A DNA stretch of 64,000 nt from an uncultured Acidimicrobiia bacterium. GTDB taxonomy: Bacteria; Acidobacteriota; Terriglobia; Versatilivoradales; Versatilivoraceae. This document shows, in pieces, positions 27,590-41,061 of this stretch. The stretch lies in contig CAWBAT010000007.1 of NCBI GenBank assembly GCA_963786955.1, positions 160,001 to 224,000 of the forward strand, given 5' to 3'. The notes beneath the pieces were generated by a model. That model saw nothing but the letters and a program-made list of their open reading frames with translations. It did not search any database and was not told the DNA's origin. Each line of letters opens with the position of its first letter. The stretch's first letter is position 1. The translations under genes were made by a program, and so were the position numbers.

Positions 27590-28138
27590 TTATTTCTGTT
27601 TTGAGGTTTTCCCAATCCAATAGAAAAAGACGATGATCAGGCAAGCTGGCAAAACGGGACCCCACCAGCCTTTGAAACCTAGTAGGTTGATGACTGAAGG
27701 GCCGCCCCAGGCGACTAAAGCGAGGATGAGGCCGGCCCAAGCCATCCCGCTAATCAAGCTGAATAGGCTGAAATGCAAGGCCGGAACTCCTGAGTACGCA
27801 CAGGCGGCGGGGATGGCGATTCGCAACCCTGGTAGAAATCGGGAAGCCAGTATCATGCTCGTGGCATGTCGCCGAACTTTTTCTACGATCTGCTTGCCTT
27901 TGGCCGCGATAGCAGGGAAGCGGTCCAGCAGATGCCAAAAGCGCCCTCGGCAGACGTAATAGTAAAACTGATCTCCAGCGGAGCCACCGAGAGCCCCTGC
28001 GGCAAAAACCCCCAAAGGATTGAGCTTTCCCAGACCTACCAGGACACTGGCCGCGACAAAGACCACCTCTCCCTCGACGGCGGCAGCAAGAAATATCGCG
28101 AAATAGGCAAATATTCCGGGCCAAGTTTCCAAGCTCAT
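27590..28138 (-). CDS. DedA/VTT-family membrane protein
   Basis: AVEGE, GDQFYYYVCR, SRFLPGLRIAIP; start overlaps the aminotransferase stop. Confidence 0.92.
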   Translation of the reverse strand: MSLETWPGIFAYFAIFLAAAVEGEVVFVAASVLVGLGKLNPLGVFAAGALGGSAGDQFYYYVCRGRFWHLLDRFPAIAAKGKQIVEKVRRHATSMILASRFLPGLRIAIPAACAYSGVPALHFSLFSLISGMAWAGLILALVAWGGPSVINLLGFKGWWGPVLPACLIIVFFYWIGKTSKQK

Positions 28139-29409
28139 TTCATCCCTTCTTTGGCAGGAGACATGTTTTGTCCTGAATGTGAAGTGACCGCGGCCCGAAC
28201 TCTCTCAGCCACAAGAGTAACCTGTGATTCGGAAAGGCTCTCATAGATCGGGAGCTGCACTGCGTTGGCTGCACGTTCCGCCCCTGTGGCACGGGAATTC
28301 GTGCCAAACAAGGGAAGCTGTGTGCAGAGGTCGACGTGCAGCGTCTCGACGTCAACACCTCGCCGGATGCAGCGTCTCACGAGGTCGTCCCGATCCGGTA
28401 CGTAGACGCAGTATTGATAGTAAACGTGCTGTCTCTCGGGCGGTACCTTGGGAGGCACCACTCCAGGAAGGTCTTTCAGTATCTGGTCCATCATTCGAGC
28501 ATGCGATTGGGTTCTGCTGGTCCATTCCTCCAGATGCTCCAGCCCCGCCAGACCCAGGGTTGCCTGAACGTTTGAATACTTCCGAGTGTAGGAACTGGGC
28601 AGCGGCGAGAGGGGCTGTATCTTTTCCCACAAGTAGACGTCGGGCCGTGCGTTCAACCAGGATGCGCCGTAAAGGATAGGGAAGGCGGAGAAAGTAAACG
28701 CGGCGGGTCGAGTCAAGATCCTTTGAATTCTCCCCTGGAGAAACCTTTTCAAAATCTCTTTGGGAAGAGGATCGGGCTCAGCAGTCGCCAAATCAGCTAC
28801 GCGCTTGGCAAGAGACGACTCTCTTACAACCGCCATCCCTCCACCGTAAGTGTTTAATGGCTTCAAGGTTTGAAAGCTAAAGAAACTGGCATCACTTAAA
28901 GTCCCAACTTTTTGCCCTTTGTAAGTTGCCCCTAGCGAATGAGCGCAATCCTCAATAACCGCTAATTGTCTTCTTCTCGCAATTGAAAGGATCGAGTCCA
29001 TGTCACAAGGCAAGCCGTAGAGATGCGTGGGTACAACCGCCACGGTATCCGCCGTGACAGCACGTTCGAAAGCTTCTGGATCCAAGTTAAACGTCTCCGC
29101 ATCAATATCGACGAAGACTGGCTTGAAGCCAGCCACTCGCGCCAGTTCCGGGATAACCCAAAAGGTTAGTGCGGGGAAAATAATCTCGGAACCTGGAGGG
29201 AATTGAAACGCCTTGAGGATGTAAAGGAAGGCCATTCGGCCATAAGAGGTGGCAATGGCATGGCTTCCGCCCAAACGCTTTGCAAAGGCCTTTTCAAATA
29301 ACGCAATGGAAGGACCTCGGATCAGCTCATCTCGTTTCTTGCACTCCGCAATGATTTGCTCTGTGTTGGGAATGACTCTCGGGCCATACCGGGAAATTGC
29401 CTTCAACAT
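28135..29409 (-). CDS. DegT/DnrJ/EryC1/StrS-family PLP aminotransferase
   Basis: FEKAFA, PVFVD, PTHLYGLPCDM, VIEDCAHSLG, SFQTLK (PLP lysine), GGG, QLPIY. Confidence 0.92.
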   Translation of the reverse strand: MLKAISRYGPRVIPNTEQIIAECKKRDELIRGPSIALFEKAFAKRLGGSHAIATSYGRMAFLYILKAFQFPPGSEIIFPALTFWVIPELARVAGFKPVFVDIDAETFNLDPEAFERAVTADTVAVVPTHLYGLPCDMDSILSIARRRQLAVIEDCAHSLGATYKGQKVGTLSDASFFSFQTLKPLNTYGGGMAVVRESSLAKRVADLATAEPDPLPKEILKRFLQGRIQRILTRPAAFTFSAFPILYGASWLNARPDVYLWEKIQPLSPLPSSYTRKYSNVQATLGLAGLEHLEEWTSRTQSHARMMDQILKDLPGVVPPKVPPERQHVYYQYCVYVPDRDDLVRRCIRRGVDVETLHVDLCTQLPLFGTNSRATGAERAANAVQLPIYESLSESQVTLVAERVRAAVTSHSGQNMSPAKEGMK

Positions 29410-30800
29410 TCCACTTGCCTTGACATGACTTCCAACTCCTTTCGAGTATGGATCTCTTGCGCCTTCACGTCTAATTTTCTGGCGAAATTTTGAACGAACG
29501 CATTATTCAGGCGCCAGATATTGGCCACGAAAGAGGGTCTCATGAAAAAACGCGCAAAAGCGGCGCCAAGTAAAAAGGAGAGTTCCTCCGGTTTCAGATT
29601 GGGGTGTTTGAATGTTGGCGTATATCCATTGAATTTTTCCCAATCCTTCTCATAGACTAAAGGCTCTATCTGTTTCCATAAAGGAGTACCGGGATATGGG
29701 GTCAGTAATTTGAATAGGGCATAGGTGGAATCCAAGCTTATCGAATACTCGATGGTGGCGGAAATAGAGCTCCACGTGTCGGTCAAGAACCCGAGAACGT
29801 AAAAGGCGACCGTCCCAATCCCCATGCGCTTACAGGTTGCAATAATGGCTTTGGCGTGCGCGGGGGCGATGGGGGTTCGTGCGACTTTTCGCAGAATCTC
29901 GGGTGACACCGACTCGACTCCGAAATTGATGCGTCTGAGTCCGGACGCATACAGTTTCTTCAAGAGGTCTTCATCCAGGCGGTCCAGCCGGGTCTCACAT
30001 TCATAATGTAACTTGAGCTTTCGAAACTGGATCTCATCAGCCAAGTGGACGCAACGCTCCCTTTGGAAAGTAAACAGAGGATCACGAAAAACGACATAGG
30101 GATTGGGATGCCGCTCACACAATGCCTCCAGTTCATCTACGATGTTCTTGACGCTGCGTGCCCGATAGCTTGCAAGGATGCGGTGTGGACAATAGGTGCA
30201 GAACTCCGGGCAACTCCGGCTGGACATCAAGGAAAAAGAGCCCCCGCCGAGTTGGTCTCTTAGACCGATTTTTTGCCAGACGTCCGGAATCTTCTCAATC
30301 AGATCCCAGCGGGCATAAGGGATTGAATCCAGATCTGCGATGGCGGGGCTTGGCGTTAACCCGCCTAAGGTCTCACCAGCAGCCAAACGCATGATGGCGG
30401 CTTCGGGTTCGCCTTGAATCACGAAGTCTGAATGATCCAGGAAGAGTTGAGAAAGCTTGGAAGCTGCCAAGCCGACGAAACCGACGCGAACCCCTTTTTG
30501 CCGTGCCTCGTCGGCCCACCTGGTCTCGTGCTTGTAATCCACCAGAGACGATAAAACAATGGCCACATCTGCTTCGACCAGCTTGTCGGATGTGGCGACG
30601 ACCTCATGACCCGCTTCCGCCAAAATTCCTGCAATGGTCGCCATTTGAACGCTGGGCACCTGATGAAAATTGCGTTTAAAGTGGCAATATAGCCTGGTTG
30701 TTTTTGAAAAAGGGCTCATCCTTGAGCCATAACCACCAACCACAGTATCTTTGACGACATATCCATGTTTTGACATCAAGTCAGCCAAAAGAATCCGCAT
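29403..30800 (-). CDS. Radical SAM enzyme with N-terminal B12-binding-like domain
   Basis: SRSCPEFCTYC (CxxxCxxC), DFVIQGEPE, DLDSIPYARWDL, FRDPLFT, FGVES, TPYPGTPL. Confidence 0.9.
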   Translation of the reverse strand: MRILLADLMSKHGYVVKDTVVGGYGSRMSPFSKTTRLYCHFKRNFHQVPSVQMATIAGILAEAGHEVVATSDKLVEADVAIVLSSLVDYKHETRWADEARQKGVRVGFVGLAASKLSQLFLDHSDFVIQGEPEAAIMRLAAGETLGGLTPSPAIADLDSIPYARWDLIEKIPDVWQKIGLRDQLGGGSFSLMSSRSCPEFCTYCPHRILASYRARSVKNIVDELEALCERHPNPYVVFRDPLFTFQRERCVHLADEIQFRKLKLHYECETRLDRLDEDLLKKLYASGLRRINFGVESVSPEILRKVARTPIAPAHAKAIIATCKRMGIGTVAFYVLGFLTDTWSSISATIEYSISLDSTYALFKLLTPYPGTPLWKQIEPLVYEKDWEKFNGYTPTFKHPNLKPEELSFLLGAAFARFFMRPSFVANIWRLNNAFVQNFARKLDVKAQEIHTRKELEVMSRQVEC

Positions 30801-31009
30801 TATTCCCTCTCATTTCGAATGGCATTAGATTGTGTATCGAGGAAGAACATTTGCAAATCTGCTCTTCGTGAATGCTTAATTTTCAGTAGGAAGTCATAAA
30901 GCCACTTCCCATGACATCGGAAAGGAGACCCATTAGATCCGCCAAGAAACACAGATTCAACGTCTAGAACGGTGAACCCTGTTATTCAGGCGAATCTCGC
31001 CTGTTCTTA

Positions 31010-31438
31010 TTAGGCTGTCGGAGTTTCGGGAGTCAAAGAAGGGGGTGGCCGATCAAAAAGGAAGAGAACAATTCCGTGCTGCACATGTTCAACCCTGGTT
31101 TCGGGGATTAGGATTTCGCAAAGGTCGCTTGGGACCAGAAGATCACAAATCTCCAAACACGCCGAAGGGATAGCTTCATCGTCACCATCGAAATCCTCGT
31201 CAATCGTCGAGTAAAACTCAAGAATTCGAAAGGAAAATTGAAAGTTGGAGCGAACCGGTCGAACGGCGTCAAAAACACTGATTTCCTCGAATGATCTCAG
31301 GGTTGGAACTCTGTCTTCGGCCAAACGAATGGGCGTGCATTGAGCTGCCAAAAGGAAGAACAAAAGTAAAGAAAAGGCCCAGAATGCTGAGGGCAGGTGT
31401 TCTTGGAAGAATCGCTTCGGGATAAAGAACTGTGTCAT
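31010..31438 (-). CDS. Putative leader/arrest peptide: N-terminal TM, acidic linker, C-terminal RPPP
   Basis: AFWAFSLLLFFLLAA, DEDFDGDDE, FLFDRPPP ending 9 residues before the stop; upstream of and co-oriented with the radical SAM operon. Confidence 0.55.
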   Translation of the reverse strand: MTQFFIPKRFFQEHLPSAFWAFSLLLFFLLAAQCTPIRLAEDRVPTLRSFEEISVFDAVRPVRSNFQFSFRILEFYSTIDEDFDGDDEAIPSACLEICDLLVPSDLCEILIPETRVEHVQHGIVLFLFDRPPPSLTPETPTA

Positions 31439-31629
31439 GATGAGTTTCTCACGCTCAACACAGGCTCAAGTGTCATTCGCTGGAGCCTGTCCAAATTCTT
31501 CTGCCCAAAGGCTATGCTATTGAAATGCTTGGAACTTAGCACACACTCAACACTAGTCCAATCCATTGGGAGTGTCAACCTGGAAACGACCTGAAAAGGA
31601 CGCAGTGGCAGAACTTGCATCTCATATAA

Positions 31630-31733
31630 TTCTGCTTTGAGGTTCTCCCAACCCAATAGAAAAAAGCCACCATCAGGCAGGGTCGCAAAACGGCATCCTC
31701 GAGCCGTCAAAACCGGGATGATTGATGACTGAA
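31630..31733 (-). pseudogene. Diverged, frameshifted copy of the dedA 3' end (27594-27698)
   Basis: Manual alignment: 53/64 identical over the first 64 bp, homology continuing to TTGATGACTGAA; encodes VLRPCLMVAFFYWVGRTSKQ vs VLPACLIIVFFYWIGKTSKQ. Confidence 0.85.
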
Positions 31734-31761
31734 TCGATATCTACGAAGACGGGCGTGAAAT

Positions 31762-34700
31762 TCACTCTGCCGGGATCTCAACTCCAGCGGTTGCAGGGCG
31801 GCGCCGAAATATCGTCCCGACCTTCTTCTGGAAGGAATCCAAATAGATGTAATAAACGGGAGTGATATACAGGGTAATCAGCTGAGAAACCACCAAGCCG
31901 CCTACCACGGCAAGACCCAGGGGGCGCCGCGCTTCTGAGCCCGCGCCAAAGCCAAGCGCAATGGGCAGAGTGCCCATCAGGGCAGCCACAGTGGTCATCA
32001 TGATGGGACGGAAGCGAACGAGGCAGCCTTCGTAGATCGCATCCACAGTATTCTTTCCTTCGATTCTTTCTGCCTCCAAGGCGAAGTCAATCATCATGAT
32101 GGCGTTTTTCTTAACAATACCGATCAGCATGATGATTCCGACAAACCCGTAAAGGTCGAGCGGATATTTGAAGTACATCAGCGTGAGGATGGCTCCCAGC
32201 CCGGCCGAGGGCAGACCTGAAAGAATGGTCAGAGGGTGAATTAAGCTCTCATAAAGGACACCGAGCAAGACGTAAATCACCATTATAGTTAGCGTCAGTA
32301 AGAGGCCCAGGCCGACGAGCGATGCTTGATAAGCCTGGGCCTCTCCCTGAAAGCTAGCGCTGATTGCACCTGACAAAGTGTTACGCGCGAGGTTCTCTAC
32401 GTCCTTCACGGCGTCACCCAAGGCGACGCCGGGCTTGAGTCCGAAACTAAGCGTGACAGAGGGGAGCTGTCCTGTATGGTTGATCACGAGAGGCCCTAAG
32501 CTTTGAGTTAACCTGGCCACAGCACTCAGGGCCACTAGTTGACCGGTCGAAGACCGGATATAAAGCGAGGAAAGAGTGGTCGGGTCTCTTTGGTACTGGG
32601 GCTCAAGCTCCATGATGACTTTGTACTCATTGTCAGGTCTAAAGATAGTTGAAACCTGCCGGTCGCCAAAAGCGGAGGCAAGAGCGTCTTCCACCTGAAA
32701 AGCCGTAACGCCCAGGGCTGAGGCCTTGTCGCGGTCGATTTCGACATTCACTTGAGGGTTTGCGATCTGGAGGTCGGTGTTGACATCTTGAAGAGATTGA
32801 ATCTGGCTCATTGCAGACAAGAGTTTTCCGGACTCCCTGTAGAGTTGCTGGGAGTCTGTGCCTTGCAGGGTAAACTGATAAGGGCTCTTGGTAAGCCGGC
32901 CCCCGATTTCAATGGCCGGTGGGTTTTGCATGAAAGCCATTATTCCCGGGACCGTCATGAGCTTTGGACGCAAATAGTTGATAACCTCGTCCGTACTCAT
33001 ACGGCGCACAGGATGAGGCTTAAGATGGCAGAAAAAGATACCTGAGTTTCCGGCGGATCCGGCAAAACCTGCGCCAGCCAAAGAAAACGTGGTTTCAACA
33101 TTGGGGTCCTGAGTCACGATGGAGGTTATGGCCAATTGGTGCTCCCTCATCGAGTCAACGGAAATGCCCTGCGCCGCCTGCGTGAAACCAATAATTAGAC
33201 CGGAATCTTCACTCGATAGAAACCCCTTGGGAATACGGAAAAAGACGTAAACCGTGGCGATTAAAAGCAACATTGACATTATGAAGGTTAAAAAGCGATG
33301 CCTGAGGACCCCTCTAAGACTCCAGTCATAGGCTCTAAGCCAAACCTGAAAAAACCGTTCTGAGGCGGCATACACGCGACCATGCTTCTCCGTGCCGGGT
33401 GGACGGACGAATCGGCTGCAAAGCATAGGTGTGAGAGTAAGGGAAACAAAGCCCGAAACCAGAACCGCCGTGGCGATGGTTACAGCAAATTCGTGGAGAA
33501 GGCGGCCCAGGATTCCTCCTAAGAAGAGGACTGGGATAAAGACGGCAGCCAAGGAAAGCGTCATGGAGAGAATTGTAAAGCTGATCTCTTTTGAGCCGTT
33601 GAGCGCAGCTTCAAGAACTCCTTCCCCTCGTTCCATATGCCGGACAATGTTCTCCAGCATGACGATGGCATCGTCCACCACGAATCCTACAGAAAGGGTC
33701 AATGCCATGAGCGATAAATTGTCTACCGTGTACCCGAGGAGATACATGACCGCAAAGGTGCCAATGATGGATACCGGGAGCGCCAGGCTGGGTATGACCG
33801 TAGCCGACAGGTTCCGGAGGAAGAGAAAGATGACCATGACCACGAGGGCGACGGTGAGATAAAGTGTAAACTTGACGTCCTCGATCGAGTCGCGAATGGT
33901 TTTGGATCGGTCATAGAGAATGTCCATGTGCACTGAAGCGGGGATTTGTGACCGGAAGCTGGGGAGCAACTTCTTGATGTTATCCACTACCTCGACCGTG
34001 TTTGTGCCGGGCTGGCGGCGGATTGCAAGGACTTCCGCCCGGGTGGTATTAAACCAGTTGGCGACCTTGTTATTCTGGACACTGTCGATAACCCGGCCAA
34101 GTTGTTCGAGCCGCACGGGGGAACCGTTGCGATAAGCGACAATCAAAGGACGGTAGGCTGCCGCGTCGGTAAGCTGGCCAGTGGCTTGTAAGCTAAAGGC
34201 TTTGTGGGCACCGGTCAGCAGTCCGGTCGGAAGGTTCACATTGCCGCGTTGAATTGACGCTGTCACTTCATCAATACCGATGCCGCGGGCATTGAGCGCT
34301 TTGGGATCAAGCTGAACGCGCACGGCGTACTTTTGTTCACCATAAACCTGAACCTGGGCCACTCCCTTCACCATCGAAATACGTTGTGCCATGAGGGTGT
34401 CTGCGTATTTGTGCACCGTGGAGAGAGGAAGTGTGGGGGAGCTGACTGACATGTAAATGATCGGCTGGTCGGCGGGATTGACCTTAAAATAGGAGGGCGG
34501 GGCAGGCATATCCCTTGGTAGTTCACCTGCTGCCCCGGAGATCGCGGCCTGCACGTCTTGCGCGGCGGCGTCGATATTCCGACTCAGATCGAATTGCAAC
34601 GTGACTGAAGTAAAACCCTGTGTGTTAACCGAACTCATTGAGTCCAGCCCCGCGATTGTGGAAAACTGCCGTTCCAGGGGGATGGCGACAGCAGATGCCA

Positions 34701-34875
34701 TCGTCTCAGCGTTTGCCCCAGGGAGGCTGGCACCCACCTGGATGGTCGGGTAGTCCACGTTCGGAAGGTCGTTGACAGGAAGAAGCCGGTAGGCCAGGAT
34801 GCCGAAAAGTAGAATCGAAGCTGTCACCAGCCCGGTCATGATGGGGCGGCGGATAAAGAGTTCAGCAAGGTTCAT
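31762..34875 (-). CDS. RND efflux permease (MdtB/MdtC-like)
   Basis: FIRRPI, KVNPADQPI, GFVVDDAIVMLENI, GIVKKNAIMMIDFA, RFRPIMMTT; 1037 aa. Confidence 0.96.
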   Translation of the reverse strand: MNLAELFIRRPIMTGLVTASILLFGILAYRLLPVNDLPNVDYPTIQVGASLPGANAETMASAVAIPLERQFSTIAGLDSMSSVNTQGFTSVTLQFDLSRNIDAAAQDVQAAISGAAGELPRDMPAPPSYFKVNPADQPIIYMSVSSPTLPLSTVHKYADTLMAQRISMVKGVAQVQVYGEQKYAVRVQLDPKALNARGIGIDEVTASIQRGNVNLPTGLLTGAHKAFSLQATGQLTDAAAYRPLIVAYRNGSPVRLEQLGRVIDSVQNNKVANWFNTTRAEVLAIRRQPGTNTVEVVDNIKKLLPSFRSQIPASVHMDILYDRSKTIRDSIEDVKFTLYLTVALVVMVIFLFLRNLSATVIPSLALPVSIIGTFAVMYLLGYTVDNLSLMALTLSVGFVVDDAIVMLENIVRHMERGEGVLEAALNGSKEISFTILSMTLSLAAVFIPVLFLGGILGRLLHEFAVTIATAVLVSGFVSLTLTPMLCSRFVRPPGTEKHGRVYAASERFFQVWLRAYDWSLRGVLRHRFLTFIMSMLLLIATVYVFFRIPKGFLSSEDSGLIIGFTQAAQGISVDSMREHQLAITSIVTQDPNVETTFSLAGAGFAGSAGNSGIFFCHLKPHPVRRMSTDEVINYLRPKLMTVPGIMAFMQNPPAIEIGGRLTKSPYQFTLQGTDSQQLYRESGKLLSAMSQIQSLQDVNTDLQIANPQVNVEIDRDKASALGVTAFQVEDALASAFGDRQVSTIFRPDNEYKVIMELEPQYQRDPTTLSSLYIRSSTGQLVALSAVARLTQSLGPLVINHTGQLPSVTLSFGLKPGVALGDAVKDVENLARNTLSGAISASFQGEAQAYQASLVGLGLLLTLTIMVIYVLLGVLYESLIHPLTILSGLPSAGLGAILTLMYFKYPLDLYGFVGIIMLIGIVKKNAIMMIDFALEAERIEGKNTVDAIYEGCLVRFRPIMMTTVAALMGTLPIALGFGAGSEARRPLGLAVVGGLVVSQLITLYITPVYYIYLDSFQKKVGTIFRRRPATAGVEIPAE

Positions 34876-34884
34876 GCGGCTGCC

Positions 34885-36066
34885 TTATTCCGACTTCGAG
34901 TTGCCAACTTCGCCAGAATTCAAACTCCCTTTCAGTTCCACTTTCGCGCCGGGAAAGAGCAAAAGATGACCGTCCGTCACTACCTTTTCCCCCGGCTGCA
35001 GACCCTTATCAATTACTGTTTCAGCGCCGATCGTTGCTCCTGCGACGACTGGCCTGGAGTCCACGGTGAGGTTCTGGCCAACGACAAAAACATAGTGGCC
35101 AGCCTGCCCGGTCTGCACTGCCTGGGTTGGGGCGACAACAGAGTTGGGCCGAGAAGTGAGTCTCAGAATCACATTAACGAATTGCCCCGGCCATAGGCGC
35201 TTTTCAATATTTTGAAACGTCCCTCGCAAAAGAATGCTTCCCGTCGTGCTATCGACCGTGTTGTTGAAGAAAGTAAGCAGGCCCTGCTCGGGTCGAGACT
35301 CATCCTGGGGCGGGATCGCTTCGATCTTAAGCTTGCCCCGCGCCTGGTATTGCTTGATCTGCTGCAAGTACTGTTCTGGAACGGAAAAGTTGACATAAAG
35401 GGGGCTGACCTGGTTGATCTCGATCAGTGCTGTGTCGTTGGCTTTAACAATGTTTCCCTGGTGAACCAGCAGCTTGCCAGTTCGACCGGTCAGCGGAGAA
35501 TGAATGGAGCAATATGCAAGCTGTATCTTCACATACTCCACCGCCGCTTGATCAGCGCGGACGGCTCCTGCCAGCGCACCGGCGTTGCTACGGAATTGGT
35601 CGTGTTGTTCTCTGGATATCAGTCCGTCTTCATACAGCTTTTGGGCACGATCTGCCTGAGCCTGCGCATTCTTTTCCTGGGCCAGGTCTCGAGCCAAATT
35701 GGCTTCTGCCTGCTTTAGGGCAGAGTCAAAGGGGCGAGGATCGATTGCAAAGAGGAGATCTCCTTCTCGCACATCCTGACCTTCCTGGAAGTAGACGCCG
35801 TGCAATTGCCCGTCCACTTGGGACTTAACGACGACTGTGGAATATGCCTCGCCGTTTCCAATGACGCGTACTTCGATCGGAACAGTCTTTTGAGTCACCG
35901 TTGCAACTGTCACCGGGACCGCAAAATTCATGTCGGCCTGAGCAGCCTCTCCGGGGACACCGTTGCGGGAACAGGCTGGCCCGAACAATACTGCAACGAG
36001 CATGAGAAAGAGCCAAGCCGCTGGTCTGCGTCGGCGAAAATACGTGTTCAAATAATTGAATAACAT
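34885..36066 (-). CDS. RND periplasmic adaptor (MdtA-like MFP)
   Basis: VKSQVDGQL, IDPRPF, IHSPLTGRTG, LWPGQFV, GEKVVTDG; start uncertain. Confidence 0.93.
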   Translation of the reverse strand: MLFNYLNTYFRRRRPAAWLFLMLVAVLFGPACSRNGVPGEAAQADMNFAVPVTVATVTQKTVPIEVRVIGNGEAYSTVVVKSQVDGQLHGVYFQEGQDVREGDLLFAIDPRPFDSALKQAEANLARDLAQEKNAQAQADRAQKLYEDGLISREQHDQFRSNAGALAGAVRADQAAVEYVKIQLAYCSIHSPLTGRTGKLLVHQGNIVKANDTALIEINQVSPLYVNFSVPEQYLQQIKQYQARGKLKIEAIPPQDESRPEQGLLTFFNNTVDSTTGSILLRGTFQNIEKRLWPGQFVNVILRLTSRPNSVVAPTQAVQTGQAGHYVFVVGQNLTVDSRPVVAGATIGAETVIDKGLQPGEKVVTDGHLLLFPGAKVELKGSLNSGEVGNSKSE

Positions 36067-36395
36067 TCCGAACCGAGTCCTCCCTTTCTGCGCGGAGTGT
36101 ATCTCAGCTCCGGCTCGGTGTCTATCAGGACGACCGGGTATGAACCAATCCCGAACTGGCGCTGGGGCGGAGCTTGCATCCATCTAATTCGGAGGCTAAA
36201 ATCAAAAACAGGCCGCCGCTGGGGGGGAATCAAGATAAAACCCACTTTGGCAGGGAAATCATAGGAGGGGTTACTCGGGGGCGACCCGAAGGCTCCGGGT
36301 TGTAGCCGGTCTTGCGCAAGCCAGGTGAGGTCAAGGTAAACCGATGCCACAGTCATTGCAAATTAGGTCCCGCTCTAGCGATATAGGAGGATAAT

Positions 36396-36890
36396 GTGTT
36401 GAATGCTCAAGAAATAGGAACTGCCTTCCTCAGTCAGGCACGATCGCATCTCAAGCATGACTTCATGCCGAAGATCGAGAAATGTTTTGAGCTGATCAAT
36501 GAGAGTGATGTCTGGTGGCGTTCTCATGAAACTAACAACAGCATTGGGAATCTCGCGTTACACCTAGCCGGGAATGTCCGCCAATGGATTATCTCCGGGG
36601 TAGGAGGCCAGCCAGACGTCCGTGAGCGACAAAAGGAATTTGCCCAACGGGAGGCTCTGCCCAAGGAGAAACTTTGGTCCGCCCTAGAGCGTACTGTGGA
36701 AGAATCAGATCAAGTATTGGCAAATTTCCCCGTTGAGAGACTGATGGAAAAAAGAGTCATGCAGGGTTTTGACCAGACGGCATTGCAGGCTATTTTTCAT
36801 GTCGTGGAACACTTCTCCTTCCACACCGGGCAGATCATCTACATCACGAAACTTCGCAAAGGTATTGATCTGAAGTTTTACAATCTTTGA
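36396..36890 (+). CDS. DinB/DUF1572-family protein
   Basis: NSIGNLALHLAGNVRQWI, RERQKEF, HVVEHFSFHTGQI. Confidence 0.9.
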   Translation: MLNAQEIGTAFLSQARSHLKHDFMPKIEKCFELINESDVWWRSHETNNSIGNLALHLAGNVRQWIISGVGGQPDVRERQKEFAQREALPKEKLWSALERTVEESDQVLANFPVERLMEKRVMQGFDQTALQAIFHVVEHFSFHTGQIIYITKLRKGIDLKFYNL

Positions 36891-36902
36891 AGAGACACCG
36901 GA

Positions 36903-37000
36903 AAGCAGAAGGCGGGAAGCGGAATGCAGACGGCATAAGGCAGCAAGCAGAAGGTGGAGAGCAGAGGGCAGAAAGCAGAATGCAGAAATCAAAAGGCAAC
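36903..37000 (+). repeat. Degenerate heptamer tandem repeat, 14 units, consensus ARGCAGA
   Basis: AAGCAGA AGGCGGG AAGCGGA ATGCAGA CGGCATA AGGCAGC AAGCAGA AGGTGGA GAGCAGA GGGCAGA AAGCAGA ATGCAGA AATCAAA AGGCAAC. Confidence 0.85.
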
Positions 37001-37036
37001 AGGGTGAAAGCAGTGGGGCGAAGGCGCTTCCTTCGA

Positions 37037-37537
37037 CTAATGGCTGAAGAATCGCTTGATAGTGCGAGGGAAAGAGGGACTGGTTCGAAGCTGCACTCGA
37101 ATCTCTGTGCTCTGACTCGAAACCACTTGGACTTCGCGAGTCTGGTCACCTAATTGAGGATGACTCACATGGACTCGAAAGCGTCCTGAATCTAGCGTGC
37201 TGCTCACCGCGCCGGACGAGTTCGGTGTCAATGTGGCAACGAGGGTTCCTTGCAGGGTTAAGATTTCAACCGTTGCATCAGGTAAGGCTTTTCCTGTTTT
37301 GGCATCTTGTACAATGGTTACGAGTTCTCCTTTGCCATGCACCGATTTCAAAAGATTCGGAATCGCAATGAGAGCACCGGTGATCGAAATGATGCCAGCG
37401 GCAAGACTGACCAAAGTCTGAACCCTTGAAAGAGACAACTTCAGCCCCTTCCGAGCGCTCCCTGGCGGAATAGGACCCGGTCCTGGACCCTTGCCCTGGT
37501 CTTTCCCTAACCCTAAGATATTGAACCGCTTACTCAT
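37037..37537 (-). CDS. Single-TM protein with carboxypeptidase-regulatory-like beta-sandwich domain
   Basis: TM segment LVSLAAGIISITGALIAI; VQDAKTGKALPDATVEI, LDSGRFRVHVSHP. Confidence 0.7.
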   Translation of the reverse strand: MSKRFNILGLGKDQGKGPGPGPIPPGSARKGLKLSLSRVQTLVSLAAGIISITGALIAIPNLLKSVHGKGELVTIVQDAKTGKALPDATVEILTLQGTLVATLTPNSSGAVSSTLDSGRFRVHVSHPQLGDQTREVQVVSSQSTEIRVQLRTSPSFPRTIKRFFSH

Positions 37538-37777
37538 ATCCCTCTTCCCGCAGCCTACATATTTTGTATCGACAATAACGGGTCTCTTCCGTAATTGAAT
37601 TTTCTCATTTTCTCGCCGTATTGAGGGGGAGGCCCTGCTAGCATTAAAGTTTTCGAGCCGTGGAAGTTTCATAATCGGCTTGCCGATAGAAGTGATAGAA
37701 GTCTCTCGCATTGCTGACCTTGGCAGTGAGCGGGTGGAAAGATTTTCGTGGGGATTGCAAGGAGACAGTTAAGAGAA

Positions 37778-39670
37778 ATGGAGAAGATCTTGGGCTGGAG
37801 ATGCTCTGTTGCACTTCGTGTGCTCATTCTCGGAATAGCCTCCATTTCCTATGCCCAGCAAATCCGACCATCGACCGCACCAACAGCGGATTTGTCCTCT
37901 CTATTGCAGACTCTGAAGGAAAACGTGGGGCTCTCAGGGAATATCGTGCTCTCACTTGAAACCCAGAAGAAGATTTCTGAACTCGGCAAGAGAGAACCTC
38001 AAGCGGTAGTACCCATTATCATTGGAGAATTGAAAGCCTCACGCGTCTCCAGTCAGAAGACGCTGAATTATCGCATGGCCCTAATCTCAGTGCTTGAGGA
38101 GATCGGCCCCGCCGCAGAGGCGGCAGTCCCGGTTCTCACCGAAATTGTTCAAAACGAAAAGGAACGGAATGACTTTATTTTGCTCAAAGCTCGAATGGCT
38201 TTGAGAGCAATCGGAACTCCTCCGGCCCGGCAAACCAGCCAAGCGGCCGAACAGAAGAACGTAGAGCAGTGGCTACGAAAGTCATCCCCGGAAGCAGTTG
38301 CGGAAGCTGTTGCCCAACACGCCTATCTCATTCGCCGAGAACTCCGCAGCCCTCAAATGAGCGAAGAAATGATTGAGGCCTCCGTCACAGCCCTCCTCCC
38401 CATGGGGTCACAGGCCGGGCAGGCGACGCCTACTCTTCTCCGCGCCTGGCAAGACCCGCGAGTCGGCGATAAACTGCGCTCACAGATTACCCGCTCTCTC
38501 ACCACCGCTGGTGTCAAAGACATACAAGCCGCATCCAAACGGGAACGGAGTCAAAGAGCAGCTGAAGGGGATCACGTCGATGAGATAATCATCGATGTCC
38601 GAAGTAACACCCCATTGGTAAGCACGATGGCCATGCAGGAACTGGGTGCCCTGGGGCCGACGGAAAAAGTAATTGACGTCTTGATTCAGTCACTGAAGGA
38701 GAAGAAGAACCCCGGGCAGGCCGCCCTCATTCTAGGAGGGCTTGGTTCGGCGGCCGGGAGAGCTGTCCCTGCGCTGTTGCCTTACCTTTCGGACCAGACC
38801 GCTGGGCCTAACGTCATCCAGGCACTGGGTCGAATCGGAGTCGGAGACGACGCGGCAATTGCTGGTTTAAGAAAAATAGTCGCCGACGAGAAGAGTCCCT
38901 ATCGTGGGCTGGCGGCCTCTTCTCTTGGGGTTCTAAAGTCTTCTAGTGCTGTACCTGAATTACGGTTGGCTTTGTCGGCACCTGAAAAGTACACACGGAT
39001 TCTGGCGGCAAACGCCTTGGCTGCACTTGGCTCAGAGGCAACGCCAGCGATTCCGGATTTGATCGGCCTCCTCAAAGACCCCGATCCCGATATCAGGGTG
39101 AGTGCCGTGGAAGCACTGGGAATGATTGGACCGACTGCAGCGGCAGCCGTTCCCCAAATTGAAAGGCAATTGCAATTTCCTGACCGTCGCTTGAAAGAGA
39201 GCTCAGTGGCAGCCCTGGAGAGGATTGGGGGAACGGAGGCTCAAGCGGCACTGGAACGTGATGCACTCCGCTATGCTGCCGTCGATCGGATTGAATTCAA
39301 GCGCTTGAAACAGGCGGGAAAATACGAAGACCTACAACGCTTTGCCACGGCGCTTCCTCGGACTCGCCGCATTCAGCTTGCGCGCGTCCTGTTGAAAGAC
39401 CCGGATGCAGCCGTCAGTTACACCGGTGCAGAAGTATTGATCACAGAAGGCCTGGAAATGGAAACTGTTCCAACCCTGGCGACCCTTCTTCTCAAAGCCA
39501 CGAGCGGCTCGACCGGCCGGCCTGACCACGACTGGCTGGCTCTTGACAGTGGACAACTTTTTAGCCGGATGAAGCGCGAGATTTGTAATTACTTTGAAGT
39601 CAACCTCGGCCGCTATTCGACCGAGGAGCAAGAACGCATCAGGAAGCAGCTCTGTCCTCCTTCCAAGTAG
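37778..39670 (+). CDS. HEAT-repeat protein with signal peptide
   Basis: Repeats such as LEEIGPAAEAAVPVL, LGSAAGRAVPAL, DPDPDIRVSAVEALGMIGP; signal ending SYA-QQ. Confidence 0.85.
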   Translation: MEKILGWRCSVALRVLILGIASISYAQQIRPSTAPTADLSSLLQTLKENVGLSGNIVLSLETQKKISELGKREPQAVVPIIIGELKASRVSSQKTLNYRMALISVLEEIGPAAEAAVPVLTEIVQNEKERNDFILLKARMALRAIGTPPARQTSQAAEQKNVEQWLRKSSPEAVAEAVAQHAYLIRRELRSPQMSEEMIEASVTALLPMGSQAGQATPTLLRAWQDPRVGDKLRSQITRSLTTAGVKDIQAASKRERSQRAAEGDHVDEIIIDVRSNTPLVSTMAMQELGALGPTEKVIDVLIQSLKEKKNPGQAALILGGLGSAAGRAVPALLPYLSDQTAGPNVIQALGRIGVGDDAAIAGLRKIVADEKSPYRGLAASSLGVLKSSSAVPELRLALSAPEKYTRILAANALAALGSEATPAIPDLIGLLKDPDPDIRVSAVEALGMIGPTAAAAVPQIERQLQFPDRRLKESSVAALERIGGTEAQAALERDALRYAAVDRIEFKRLKQAGKYEDLQRFATALPRTRRIQLARVLLKDPDAAVSYTGAEVLITEGLEMETVPTLATLLLKATSGSTGRPDHDWLALDSGQLFSRMKREICNYFEVNLGRYSTEEQERIRKQLCPPSK

Positions 39671-39823
39671 TCGAAGGTTGTCCATCCAAAAGCTAGTTGC
39701 TTGGACCGAGCACAGAAACAGCCCCTATTCCGGAGGACTCGCGCTGAAGCAAACCCTGCAGCCTAGCCTTGACGCAGGCCGCTTTGGGGTTTGCGCTCAA
39801 ATCCACCCTTTGGAGCAATACTA

Positions 39824-40696
39824 GTGAATCGCATCCTTCCGGCCATCAGTATGCTGCTTCTTCTGACCTCCTGTCACATCGGATACGGCCCACTCCAGGA
39901 CCACAGCGAATTCGTCAGCACACGGCTTGCAGACGACAATCATATCGTGCTGTTTTCATTTCACCGTTTTGCCTATCGAGCAGCGGCCGGCTGGCGGGCC
40001 TTTCCGGACGGCGGTATTCCGGACTATGTCACAGATATCAATCTGCTGGGGACCTATGACTTGCAGACTCGGGAAACGAAGATTCTGAGACGAGAGAAGA
40101 ATTCGCAATGGCAGCCAGGCAGCGGTCTATTCTTCGTCCACTCCACAAAAGGGTCCAAGTTATTGATTTCCCAGGGAGGACAACGGCGTGGATCATTTGA
40201 GCTGGGTGTGAAGTATGTGTTGCTCGATTTCAAACAAGGCAATGCCACAGATCTTGACCTGAAATCAGACCTGGCCAGGTTCGGCAGGGACTCAGGCCAG
40301 ATCTATCTCGTGGATGGAGGCGGCACGCTGTTGTTTGTTACGTTATCTCTGGAGGAGTCTAAAGATTCGAGCGCGCACAGGAATGGCGGACTGGTTCCGG
40401 AGATCTGGGTTCGTACTCCGAGTGGAGATTACGTGAAGGCCGCCGTTTCGGCGCATTATCAGTGTACACGGAATGGCGAAGTGATCTACTGGGAGCCGTC
40501 AACCCGAGACTTCATGGCTTTTTCTATTGCCGGCCGCACAACGCGGAAAGCCCAGGAATTCAAAGTGGCCGGCTATGAGGACGTGGCCAAGGGTGTCATC
40601 CTTTCTTCTAATCGAAAGGGTCTGGAATTCGGCGTCAAAGTCAATGGGCAATGGAAATACGAACTACTCGACCTGAAGCTCGAAGAGTTGAATTAG
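39824..40696 (+). CDS. Hypothetical lipoprotein, beta-rich
   Basis: GGAG plus GTG start, lipobox LLLTSC. Confidence 0.6.
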   Translation: MNRILPAISMLLLLTSCHIGYGPLQDHSEFVSTRLADDNHIVLFSFHRFAYRAAAGWRAFPDGGIPDYVTDINLLGTYDLQTRETKILRREKNSQWQPGSGLFFVHSTKGSKLLISQGGQRRGSFELGVKYVLLDFKQGNATDLDLKSDLARFGRDSGQIYLVDGGGTLLFVTLSLEESKDSSAHRNGGLVPEIWVRTPSGDYVKAAVSAHYQCTRNGEVIYWEPSTRDFMAFSIAGRTTRKAQEFKVAGYEDVAKGVILSSNRKGLEFGVKVNGQWKYELLDLKLEELN

Positions 40697-40879
40697 GCAA
40701 ATGCCACGCGCTATCCCCAGTTAATTTGCCAAAGTAAACGACGAGCCGGGTGAAATCTAAGAATGACAATCGGCTCCAGTATCGCGCGCCTTCGGAATAA
40801 ACTTCTCATGCTTGAACACTTTCCTTCCTTTAGAACGAGGTGTCTTAAACCCGAATTCCGAAGTTGCCTGAGCGTCGCT

Positions 40880-40955
40880 AGGTGGAGCGTGCGCGTGGGA
40901 CCGCTGTCCTCCCGCGCACGCTCCATGAACGCGCCGCGGAGCGCACGTTCCACCT
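40880..40955. repeat. GGTGGAGCGTGCGC-type REP-like palindrome
   Basis: aggtggagcgtgcgcg...cgcgcacgctcca...gcgcacgttccacct. Confidence 0.7.
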
Positions 40956-41061
40956 GGATCCGCAAGTCATCGGTATACTCTCCTCCTTGCCAAGCGGCTT
41001 GCATGCCTCAGACAAATCAGCAACTAGATAGGAATCCCGCCCACCCACTTCGGAATTCGGG

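Follow-up and report, generated by a model that had tools for sequence, protein, structure and literature searches.

What is a small open reading frame (ORF) that matches no named protein family doing directly ahead of an apparently biosynthetic operon? This question is raised by a 64,000-nucleotide (nt) stretch of DNA from an uncultured bacterium of the phylum Acidobacteriota, class Terriglobia (assembly GCA_963786955.1, contig CAWBAT010000007.1, positions 160,001 to 224,000), which is the whole stretch that was analysed and is called the window below. In it, a gene for a radical S-adenosylmethionine (SAM) enzyme, followed by an aminotransferase gene and a gene for a DedA membrane protein, is preceded by an ORF of 142 amino acids (aa). 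We propose, with a probability of roughly two in three, that this ORF encodes an exported (Sec-targeted) arrest leader of the RAPP type which regulates the radical SAM-aminotransferase-DedA operon; the proposal draws on sequence comparison and on analogy with characterized leaders. Judged by its sequence, the ORF has the features by which RAPP-like arrest peptides are recognised: it is small, lies on the same strand immediately ahead of the operon, has a hydrophobic segment near its N-terminus and carries R-[A/G/P]-P-P close to its C-terminus. All leader and operon features were read on the minus strand, and those of the leader itself are the following:

31010-31438, minus strand: leader ORF, 142 aa, ATG start, ending in FLFDRPPPSLTPETPTA, stop codon TAA at 31012-31010
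31343-31390, minus strand: hydrophobic signal or anchor segment, codons 17-32, SAFWAFSLLLFFLLAA, following K8 and R9, placed by hydropathy window
31175-31201, minus strand: acidic block DEDFDGDDE, codons 80-88 (D80-E88), 45-53 residues ahead of the putative P-site proline
31145-31159, minus strand: CLEIC (CxxxC), codons 94-98, with C94 and C98
31040-31051, minus strand: RPPP codons R130-P133 (CGG CCA CCC CCT), nine codons before TAA

An earlier sequence-only reading of the window had described the 142-aa ORF with a hydrophobic N-terminus, an acidic spacer and FDRPPP near the stop codon, with the RPPP codons at 31051-31040, and all of these lie exactly where it had placed them. The best 15-residue hydropathy window of the leader has a mean of 2.38, and AlphaFold predicts a helix for residues 6-33, of which residues 11-30 form the sole confident part of the model (block-mean predicted local distance difference test score, pLDDT, of 79-86); with 11 sequences in the alignment no usable fold was obtained, the mature part being modelled at low confidence (mean pLDDT 56). 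Neither a Pfam family (E up to 0.1) nor an NCBIfam family was found for the window's leader, and a protein atlas returned unnamed clusters only, plus a weak lead to CzcI (score 0.93, 79 shared features) of a kind flagged as often due to chance.

Eight homologues of the leader, at 55-97% identity, came from a protein search. The two other species of the genus also encode it, as a genome search showed, at 61% and at 34-35% identity (the latter in the genome G001), and in either of them the next gene downstream is the radical SAM orthologue. Five hits, all of the same genus-level family, resulted from a profile search of 1.8 billion representative sequences, which added two full-length, more distant members (P0009 and P0010) and two fragments; scans with the leader alignment recovered only the two genus relatives already known among genome contigs and, among metagenome contigs, 591 pattern matches of which none was confirmed. 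The sequence F-[D/E]-R-P-P-P is retained in all 10 full-length homologues from the protein searches. In the genus alignment (A2, n = 11), EDFDGDDE (E81-E88), A93-C94-L95 and C98 are invariant, and not a single insertion or deletion falls between the acidic and cysteine block and RPPP in any of the 11 homologues; within the genus, the region 77-134 as a whole is well conserved. P0009 and P0010 carry close variants of the block at the same distance from DxDxD to the P-site position, and the CxxxC is also present in them. Compared with the related genome G002, the leader shows 0.25 nonsynonymous (dN) and 0.40 synonymous (dS) changes per site, i.e., a dN/dS of 0.62, as opposed to 0.09 for the radical SAM enzyme and 0.13 for the aminotransferase at dS values of 0.43-0.50. 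Because the frame is open in all homologues and dN/dS is so much higher than in the enzymes, the frame appears to be kept while most of its positions are free to change, and by these comparisons the ORF is in all likelihood a real, translated and fast-evolving gene.

The sequence-only reading had further proposed that a membrane-targeted R[AGP]PP leader is wired to the radical SAM operon, and the linkage itself is borne out at 19 of 25 orthologous loci. With the radical SAM protein as query, 201 genomes of the class were searched, and 14 besides that of the window hold an orthologue of 48-92% identity. When L025, which has no upstream DNA, and L032 and L033, which are extra pieces of genomes already counted, are left out, 14 readable loci remain, that of the window included, and all 14 have a same-strand ORF directly upstream that is 142-243 aa long, has a hydrophobic N-terminus and carries R[AGP]PP 1-15 residues from its stop codon, at a distance of 47-244 nt from the radical SAM start codon. 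A survey of 401 genomes of the phylum, in which ORFs of at least 60 aa were considered, gave 11 further orthologous loci outside the class, five of them with a leader-type ORF; the remaining six have a sigma-54-type activator gene (one), a CoA-ligase-like gene (two) or nothing recognisable among ORFs of that size (three). N-terminal hydropathy windows range from 1.67 to 2.81 across all 19 leaders, the segments of L012 and L038 having been read by eye where the ORF was over-extended or another window scored higher. Upstream of paralogous radical SAM genes (34-36% identity), a leader-type ORF was found in none of six cases. How rare the combination is can be seen in the window's own genome, in which R[AGP]PP lies within the last 22 residues of 10 among 10,130 ORFs of at least 100 aa; two of these 10 are shorter than 300 aa with a hydrophobic N-terminus, and one of the two is the window's leader. 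The sequence-only reading had also expected the middle of the protein to be divergent, which holds across genera and fails within the genus, while the membrane segment and R[AGP]PP are conserved upstream of the orthologues. The leader's place at locus L036 (G543, another class) is taken by a 450-aa gene resembling sigma-54-dependent response regulators, with a 119-nt spacer, which hints that the operon is there under transcriptional control.

The constraint on the motif lies in the peptide. Across the 19 leaders the arginine and the last two prolines are invariant and the second position is Ala in nine, Gly in five and Pro in five; the arginine is encoded by six different codons drawn from both codon families, and the prolines by all four of theirs. 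Since these codons vary freely, it is the amino acids that are under selection rather than an RNA element. In an alignment of 16 leaders (A3) that are 15-60% identical to that of the window, the only invariant columns are D84, R130, P132 and P133, with D80, D82 and D86 nearly invariant, and R, P and P are invariant in each of the alignments A2, A3 and A6. Mutagenesis of ApdA and ApdP showed the arginine to be irreplaceable, replacement of Ala by Gly to be fully permissive and replacement by Pro, Ser or Asp to be partly permissive (PMC12992588). As far as sequence can tell, the substitutions at the variable position of the leaders equal this arrest-permissive set. RAPP and RGPP are among the most avoided tetrapeptides of bacterial proteomes, and their enrichment near the C-terminus has been reported for small secreted proteins encoded upstream of functionally diverse genes (PMC12992588).

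The longer leaders of other genera point to a wider family. All eight that were scanned match the FG-GAP repeat profile PF13517 (E from 5e-9 to 0.016; one above the curated cutoff), and the window's leader matches neither PF13517 nor PF01839. An AlphaFold model of a longer leader, built with 26 aligned sequences, has a confident membrane helix at residues 37-56 and a single confident four-stranded blade at about 117-155 (pLDDT 84-94) that bears the DxDxD loop, followed ahead of the RAPP motif by a stretch with pLDDT below 50 for residues 160-201 and of 50-68 beyond; this predicted structure fits a force-sensing design. In the 26 aligned long leaders the invariant columns are two aspartates of the loop and the R, P and P of the motif. 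From the acidic loop to the arrest site the distance is 45-53 residues in the genus and 96-97 in the family's long forms; in other clades it is 105-112 or 156-163. A profile of the longer leaders detects additional copies in 29 of the 201 class genomes. Twelve of these paralogues, picked from matches reaching the C-terminal end of the profile, were examined, and all 12 end in RxPP (Ala in six, Gly in four, Ser in one and Asp in one). Seven of them, at loci L046, L048-L051, L055 and L057 of other Terriglobia genomes, lie 36-276 nt upstream of efflux-pump genes, five of which encode an outer-membrane efflux protein and two an HlyD/CusB-type adaptor; the other five have unrelated genes downstream at spacers of 145-1604 nt. 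In G010 and G012 a leader-pump unit is found directly downstream of the radical SAM-DegT-DedA operon. No further RxPP leader was found ahead of the window's own pump genes of the resistance-nodulation-division (RND) type (36100-41000).

Elsewhere in the window's genome, a 133-aa ORF (C9:282878-283279, plus strand; L045:379-780) has a hydrophobic N-terminus, the sequence CHACIC and the C-terminal end LSRAPPIQG. After 46 nt it is followed by a gene for an 884-aa protein (L045:827-3481) with CarboxypepD_reg and TonB Plug domains; the ORF has no DUF2946 match. By sequence it looks like a member of the published class of RAPP leaders before TonB-dependent receptors, and the organism appears to use RAPP-type leaders elsewhere in its genome.

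Further elements of the leader region and of the three genes that follow it are these:

31550-31578, minus strand: promoter-like site, TTGACA (31578-31573), a 17-nt spacer and TAGTGT (31555-31550), read from the sequence
31053-31072, minus strand: candidate anti-start segment, leader codons I123-D129, complementary to the radical SAM start region and ending 2 nt before the R130 codon
30801-31009, minus strand: spacer of 209 nt between leader and radical SAM gene, containing the hairpin and the pyrimidine tract of the sequence-only reading
30798-30818, minus strand: radical SAM start region, Shine-Dalgarno (SD) sequence GAGAGGGA at 30811-30804, ATG at 30800-30798
29403-30800, minus strand: radical SAM enzyme, 465 aa, Pfam PF04055 only, HpnJ-, AprD4- and BchE-like
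28135-29409, minus strand: DegT/DnrJ/EryC1-type aminotransferase by Pfam and NCBIfam matches, overlapping the radical SAM stop by 7 nt
27590-28138, minus strand: DedA/VTT membrane protein, overlapping the aminotransferase stop by 4 nt, with a weak UptA-like match

The best NCBIfam matches of the radical SAM enzyme are HpnJ, AprD4 and BchE at 94-103 bits (cutoffs 481-578), and the DedA protein shows a weak likeness to undecaprenyl-phosphate transporters (NCBIfam); judging from family names only, the operon may modify a lipid-linked sugar or an envelope lipid. Radical SAM, DegT and DedA genes are kept together at every locus with enough downstream DNA. The genes upstream of the leader vary, with RND pump genes in the window and G002 and a DinB-like gene in G001, and the order of leader, radical SAM, DegT and DedA is constant despite these changing neighbours. 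In the window, a membrane fusion protein gene (34885-36183) and the RND pump gene (31762-34875), both on the minus strand, are followed by a terminator-like hairpin with a T run (31680-31667) before the promoter-like site, of which counterparts are seen by eye in G002 (TTGACA-N17-TAGTGT) and in G001 (TTGACA-N17-TAATCT). A strict consensus promoter scan of 30600-31900, which has low power, gave no sites; the conserved TTGACA-N17-TAGTGT was missed because its second hexamer matches at only three of six positions. The same low-power scan also returned no independent promoter within 30801-31009, which the sequence-only reading had named as evidence that would speak against it. An Rfam scan of 30600-31900 gave no match, and G+C dips to 42-48% across 30650-31700 compared with 50-58% in the surroundings. 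G002 lacks a 121-nt stretch of the spacer (30843-30963), and the G001 spacer is similar in length to that of the window and different in sequence; at the radical SAM start region, GAGAGGGAAT recurs unchanged in both genomes. A 50-aa ORF at 30800-30952 was discarded as a gene, G002 being without that DNA.

Some further observations concern the surroundings. A short element just past the leader stop codon (GAGATCAGGCAAG in G001 and G002, AAGAACAGGCGAG in the window) shows stronger conservation than much of the coding sequence does. A remnant resembling the DedA C-terminus (PCLMVAFFYWVGRTSKQ versus PACLIIVFFYWIGKTSKQ, by eye) lies at about 31632-31682 (minus strand), between the RND gene and the leader, and G002 has larger DegT and DedA remnants at the matching place (L009:3037-3521, by tblastn); the pump genes are absent from the corresponding G001 site. 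The remnants suggest that a second copy of the operon has decayed here or that the arrival of the pump genes was accompanied by a rearrangement. The G002 radical SAM orthologue (L002, L013, L009) is broken into two overlapping frames, residues 1-112 and 101-465, owing either to a frameshift or to a fault in the assembly of that genome.

How an arrest would come about, what it would sense and by which route it would act on the operon can be sketched as follows. The operon would be transcribed from the promoter-like site at about 31578-31550, and the N-terminal signal would engage the translocon while translation is still going on. The ribosome would then pause with R-P-P in its P site and the codon of the last proline in its A site, i.e., at about 31045 (P132, 31045-31043), a position taken by analogy from published arrest peptides (PMC10987492; PMC12992588). 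The length of the pause would be set by the pull exerted on the nascent chain from outside the membrane, either by translocation itself, which by analogy would be the default cue for such peptides, or by folding of, or ligand binding to, the DxDxD and CxxxC region held at a fixed 32-53 residues from the pause site. Since the loop stands at a fixed spacing from the arrest site, it is suggested that folding or cation binding of the acidic loop outside the membrane modulates this pull, and the CxxxC of the genus, 32-36 residues before the arrest site, is close to the geometry of CutF. Membrane potential reportedly acts on acidic clusters inside the translocon, which is a further possibility for the cue of the leader. 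That the leader family senses a cation or the membrane potential, the pause being set by the binding of a periplasmic divalent cation or by the potential's pull on the acidic cluster, is a speculative and rather doubtful extension of the proposal. If it were true, DxDxD would be a calcium-binding loop of the FG-GAP type, reduced in the genus to DEDFDGDDE plus CxxxC; one sensor design would switch two envelope responses of Acidobacteriota, the radical SAM-aminotransferase-DedA pathway and tripartite efflux pumps, and translation arrest would do the job that is done in other bacteria by phosphorylation in two-component systems of the PhoPQ and PmrAB type.

The paused ribosome would finally alter expression of the radical SAM-aminotransferase-DedA operon 209 nt downstream, and two routes may be considered. 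By one, known from SecM and CutF, it could keep open a helix between 31072-31053 and the SD-ATG region (30818-30799); by the other, that of CruR, it could prevent Rho-dependent termination in the spacer. In the whole transcript, 31072-31053 is the best duplex partner of 30818-30798 (18 pairs, -16.2 kcal/mol), with a duplex that spans the SD sequence and the first two bases of the ATG, and the helix is found in both the minimum-free-energy and the centroid folds of 31080-30795. This region folds better than shuffled sequences (z = -2.09; 5 of 200 shuffles as good), with a predicted pairing probability of 0.88-0.98 for the SD sequence. A ribosome paused on RPPP, together with any queued behind it, would occupy 31072-31053. 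Across the 19 loci, the stall-site segment ranks among the top 5% of partners of the start region in seven and among the top 10% in 12. The Rho-dependent route fits the long spacers by analogy with CruR but is without sequence support, there being neither a conserved terminator nor a C-rich bias; the spacer of the window has one weak terminator-like site and a C/G ratio of 0.85.

The two RNA elements of the sequence-only reading fared less well than ORF and motif, which are more than chance, as these elements are not. The hairpin CAGGCGA-gat-TCGCCTG at 31003-30987 is present; as a regulatory element it was rejected, for it keeps only five of seven pairs in G002 and is absent from G001 (both read by eye) and lies outside the minimum-free-energy fold, in which an alternative 9-bp helix takes its 3' arm, and no U run follows it on the minus strand. 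The tract UUCUUCCUC at 30847-30839 does pair at eight of nine positions (two of them G-U) with GAGAGGGAA at 30811-30803; as the main anti-SD sequence it was rejected, being neither the best partner (-9.3 kcal/mol, with several other segments better) nor a conserved one, and the 3' end of the 121-nt stretch missing from G002 falls within it.

A number of points weigh against the arrest-leader proposal. The motif alone is not sufficient for arrest, the RPPP variant is permissive only in part and EF-P may relieve it, and 142-243 aa is long for a leader; moreover, the protein may have a function of its own, because its middle is conserved within the genus. Homology between the short form of the genus and the long leaders is not demonstrable by hhalign (E = 0.065 over 8 columns), so that their presumed relation rests on operon position and shared short motifs. 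As to the output, a duplex at least as stable as -16.2 kcal/mol also arises in 9.5% of shuffled transcripts, the position of the anti-start segment differs between the window, G002 and G001, and the partner-rank counts come from related loci that are not independent and are inflated because proline codons are inherently complementary to SD sequences of the GGAGG type. When the stall region was forced open in silico, SD accessibility rose by at least 0.15 in only five of 14 loci, and in the window it went from 0.18 to 0.19 because other pyrimidine tracts take over. The case for an output helix is hence weak, and a scan of the 19 spacers found terminator-like sites in three, C/G ratios of 0.61-1.62 and no conserved terminator, attenuator or C-rich tract.

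An ordinary small exported or anchored protein that partners the enzymes of the operon, in which RxPP is structural or serves binding and causes no regulatory arrest, would equally have a frame that is open and conserved in every homologue, and the well-conserved region 77-134 of the genus, the recognisable FG-GAP blade of the longer relatives, the length of 142-243 aa and a spacer of up to 244 nt are all in its favour. We consider it unlikely, however, given nonsynonymous change about six times faster than in the enzymes, the persistence of only the DxDxD and RxPP columns across genera and the match of the residues at x with the arrest-permissive set. A lone FG-GAP blade cannot make a propeller, as is established for this fold; six of the 11 phylum loci have the operon without the leader, one of them with a sigma-54 activator instead, and the mature part is predicted at a mean pLDDT of 56, which with 11 sequences is weak evidence. 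Far less probable still is that the leader is the precursor of a ribosomally synthesized and post-translationally modified peptide (RiPP) whose cysteines are modified by the adjacent radical SAM enzyme. A small cysteine-containing ORF does lie directly upstream of a radical SAM gene with weak NCBIfam similarity to ApyD (67 bits, cutoff 750) and rSAM_ocin_1 (36 bits), but this ORF has an N-terminal hydrophobic export signal and loses its cysteines outside the genus, Pfam finds in the enzyme the radical SAM core PF04055 only and no SPASM or recognition domain, and the best matches of the enzyme are HpnJ, AprD4 and BchE. The partner genes encode a sugar-type aminotransferase and DedA, with no protease or peptide exporter, and paralogous leaders precede efflux pumps, not enzymes, all of which makes a RiPP precursor highly improbable.

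A third alternative concerns the cue only and is compatible with the arrest-leader model, namely that the leader is a metal sensor of the CutF/CruR type, in which copper or another cation binds to CxxxC (C94, C98) of the nascent chain, alone or together with the acidic block, and this binding sets the pause on RPPP. The layout of the leader (142 aa, CxxxC 94-98, RPPP 130-133, invariant spacing, 209-nt spacer) is close to that of CruR, and in CutF the CxxxC precedes PPP by about 40 residues (preprint 10.1101/2025.02.05.636593). Among the operons headed by paralogous leaders are efflux operons with CusB/HlyD-type adaptors, and the nearest named protein-atlas cluster is CzcI, at the score of 0.93 flagged as often due to chance. 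Set against this, none of 11 genus members matches DUF2946 (PF11162) at E up to 10, where HMMER filters drop most very weak matches, the cysteine pair is restricted to the genus and missing from the other 16 radical SAM-linked leaders, and the regulated genes are not metal-homeostasis genes; metal sensing of this type is therefore distinctly unlikely as the cue.

To our knowledge, the tested arrest peptides that sense conditions outside the cytoplasm comprise only the Sec-monitoring substrates, CutF, CruR and seven Streptomyces peptides. If the arrest-leader proposal is true, the principle would also apply in a soil phylum that has received little study and would cover a biosynthetic operon, and a conserved candidate ligand loop at a fixed spacing from the arrest site offers a handle on how an event outside the membrane reaches the ribosome. 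Recognition of such leaders, which are now nameless hypothetical proteins, would flag translationally controlled operons in annotation, and it would tie the radical SAM-aminotransferase-DedA cluster to the regulatory logic of neighbouring efflux pumps.

Among known systems, the layout of the leader recalls TnaC of the Escherichia coli tna operon, in which a stalled leader ribosome is combined with a spacer of about 200 nt with controlled termination; TnaC differs in being short and cytoplasmic, in sensing free tryptophan within the ribosomal tunnel and in having neither an export signal nor RxPP. By analogy, the leader would be closest in function to CruR and CutF and in motif to the RAPP-like arrest peptides. 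CruR (Bp2923, DUF2946) of Bordetella pertussis, encoded upstream of the TonB-dependent transporter gene bfrG, has 145 aa, is predicted to be exported and carries CXXC at 90-93 and RAPP at 139-142 in conserved spacing; a ribosome stalled on CruR prevents Rho-dependent termination within a spacer of 162 bp (PMC9426467). The leader resembles this published description in its size as a predicted exported protein (142 versus 145 aa), a cysteine pair near 90-98, the C-terminal R-x-P-P, a long spacer and a place at the head of an operon. Unlike CruR, it has no match to PF11162, combines CxxxC with RPPP rather than CXXC with RAPP, has 31 rather than 45 residues between the cysteine and proline motifs and precedes biosynthetic instead of metal-uptake genes. 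Both CutF and CruR are proposed to sense copper via a region outside the membrane (PMC9973294; PMC9426467; preprint 10.1101/2025.02.05.636593). With CutF of Rhodobacter capsulatus, encoded upstream of cutO, the leader shares a Sec signal, CxxxC, prolines near the C-terminus (PPP) and a predicted pairing of the next SD sequence (PMC9973294), and both imply sensing across the membrane during co-translational export. CutF, as described there, has its stem-loop in the short cutF-cutO spacer, whereas the predicted partner in the leader lies 235 nt from the start region at a position that is not conserved, and the leader is not a DUF2946 member, since it does not match the profile.

The RAPP-like arrest peptides ApdA, ApdP and ApcA and the RQH family are encoded upstream of secA, secDF and yidC (PMC10987492), and the leader shares with them a small upstream ORF, an N-terminal localisation signal and R-[A/G/P]-P-P near the C-terminus in an otherwise unrelated sequence. 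It would not be a Sec-monitoring substrate in the sense of SecM, VemP, MifM or ApdA, because the genes downstream are not localisation machinery. The pairing of such a leader with a biosynthetic operon, of which the sequence-only reading had not seen a description, is less new than it seemed there, since the general class of small secreted RAPP/RGPP proteins before diverse genes was published in December 2025 in EMBO J (PMC12992588). Beyond Sec and YidC, the main texts of PMC10987492 and PMC12992588 name TonB receptors, YcnI, PCuAC, PepSY and DsbA, none of which corresponds to the genes behind the leader; the main text of PMC12992588 contains none of the words 'radical', 'aminotransferase', 'DedA' and 'FG-GAP', and the figures and supplements of these papers may list further gene classes. 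A full-text literature search found no paper that joins arrest leader terms with radical SAM-aminotransferase-DedA or FG-GAP terms. The leader further differs from the published RAPP-like peptides by its conserved DxDxD loop of the FG-GAP type and by its phylum, Acidobacteriota. New compared with these systems are a leader family with an FG-GAP-type loop, its use in Acidobacteriota and its association with efflux pumps as well as with a radical SAM-aminotransferase-DedA operon.

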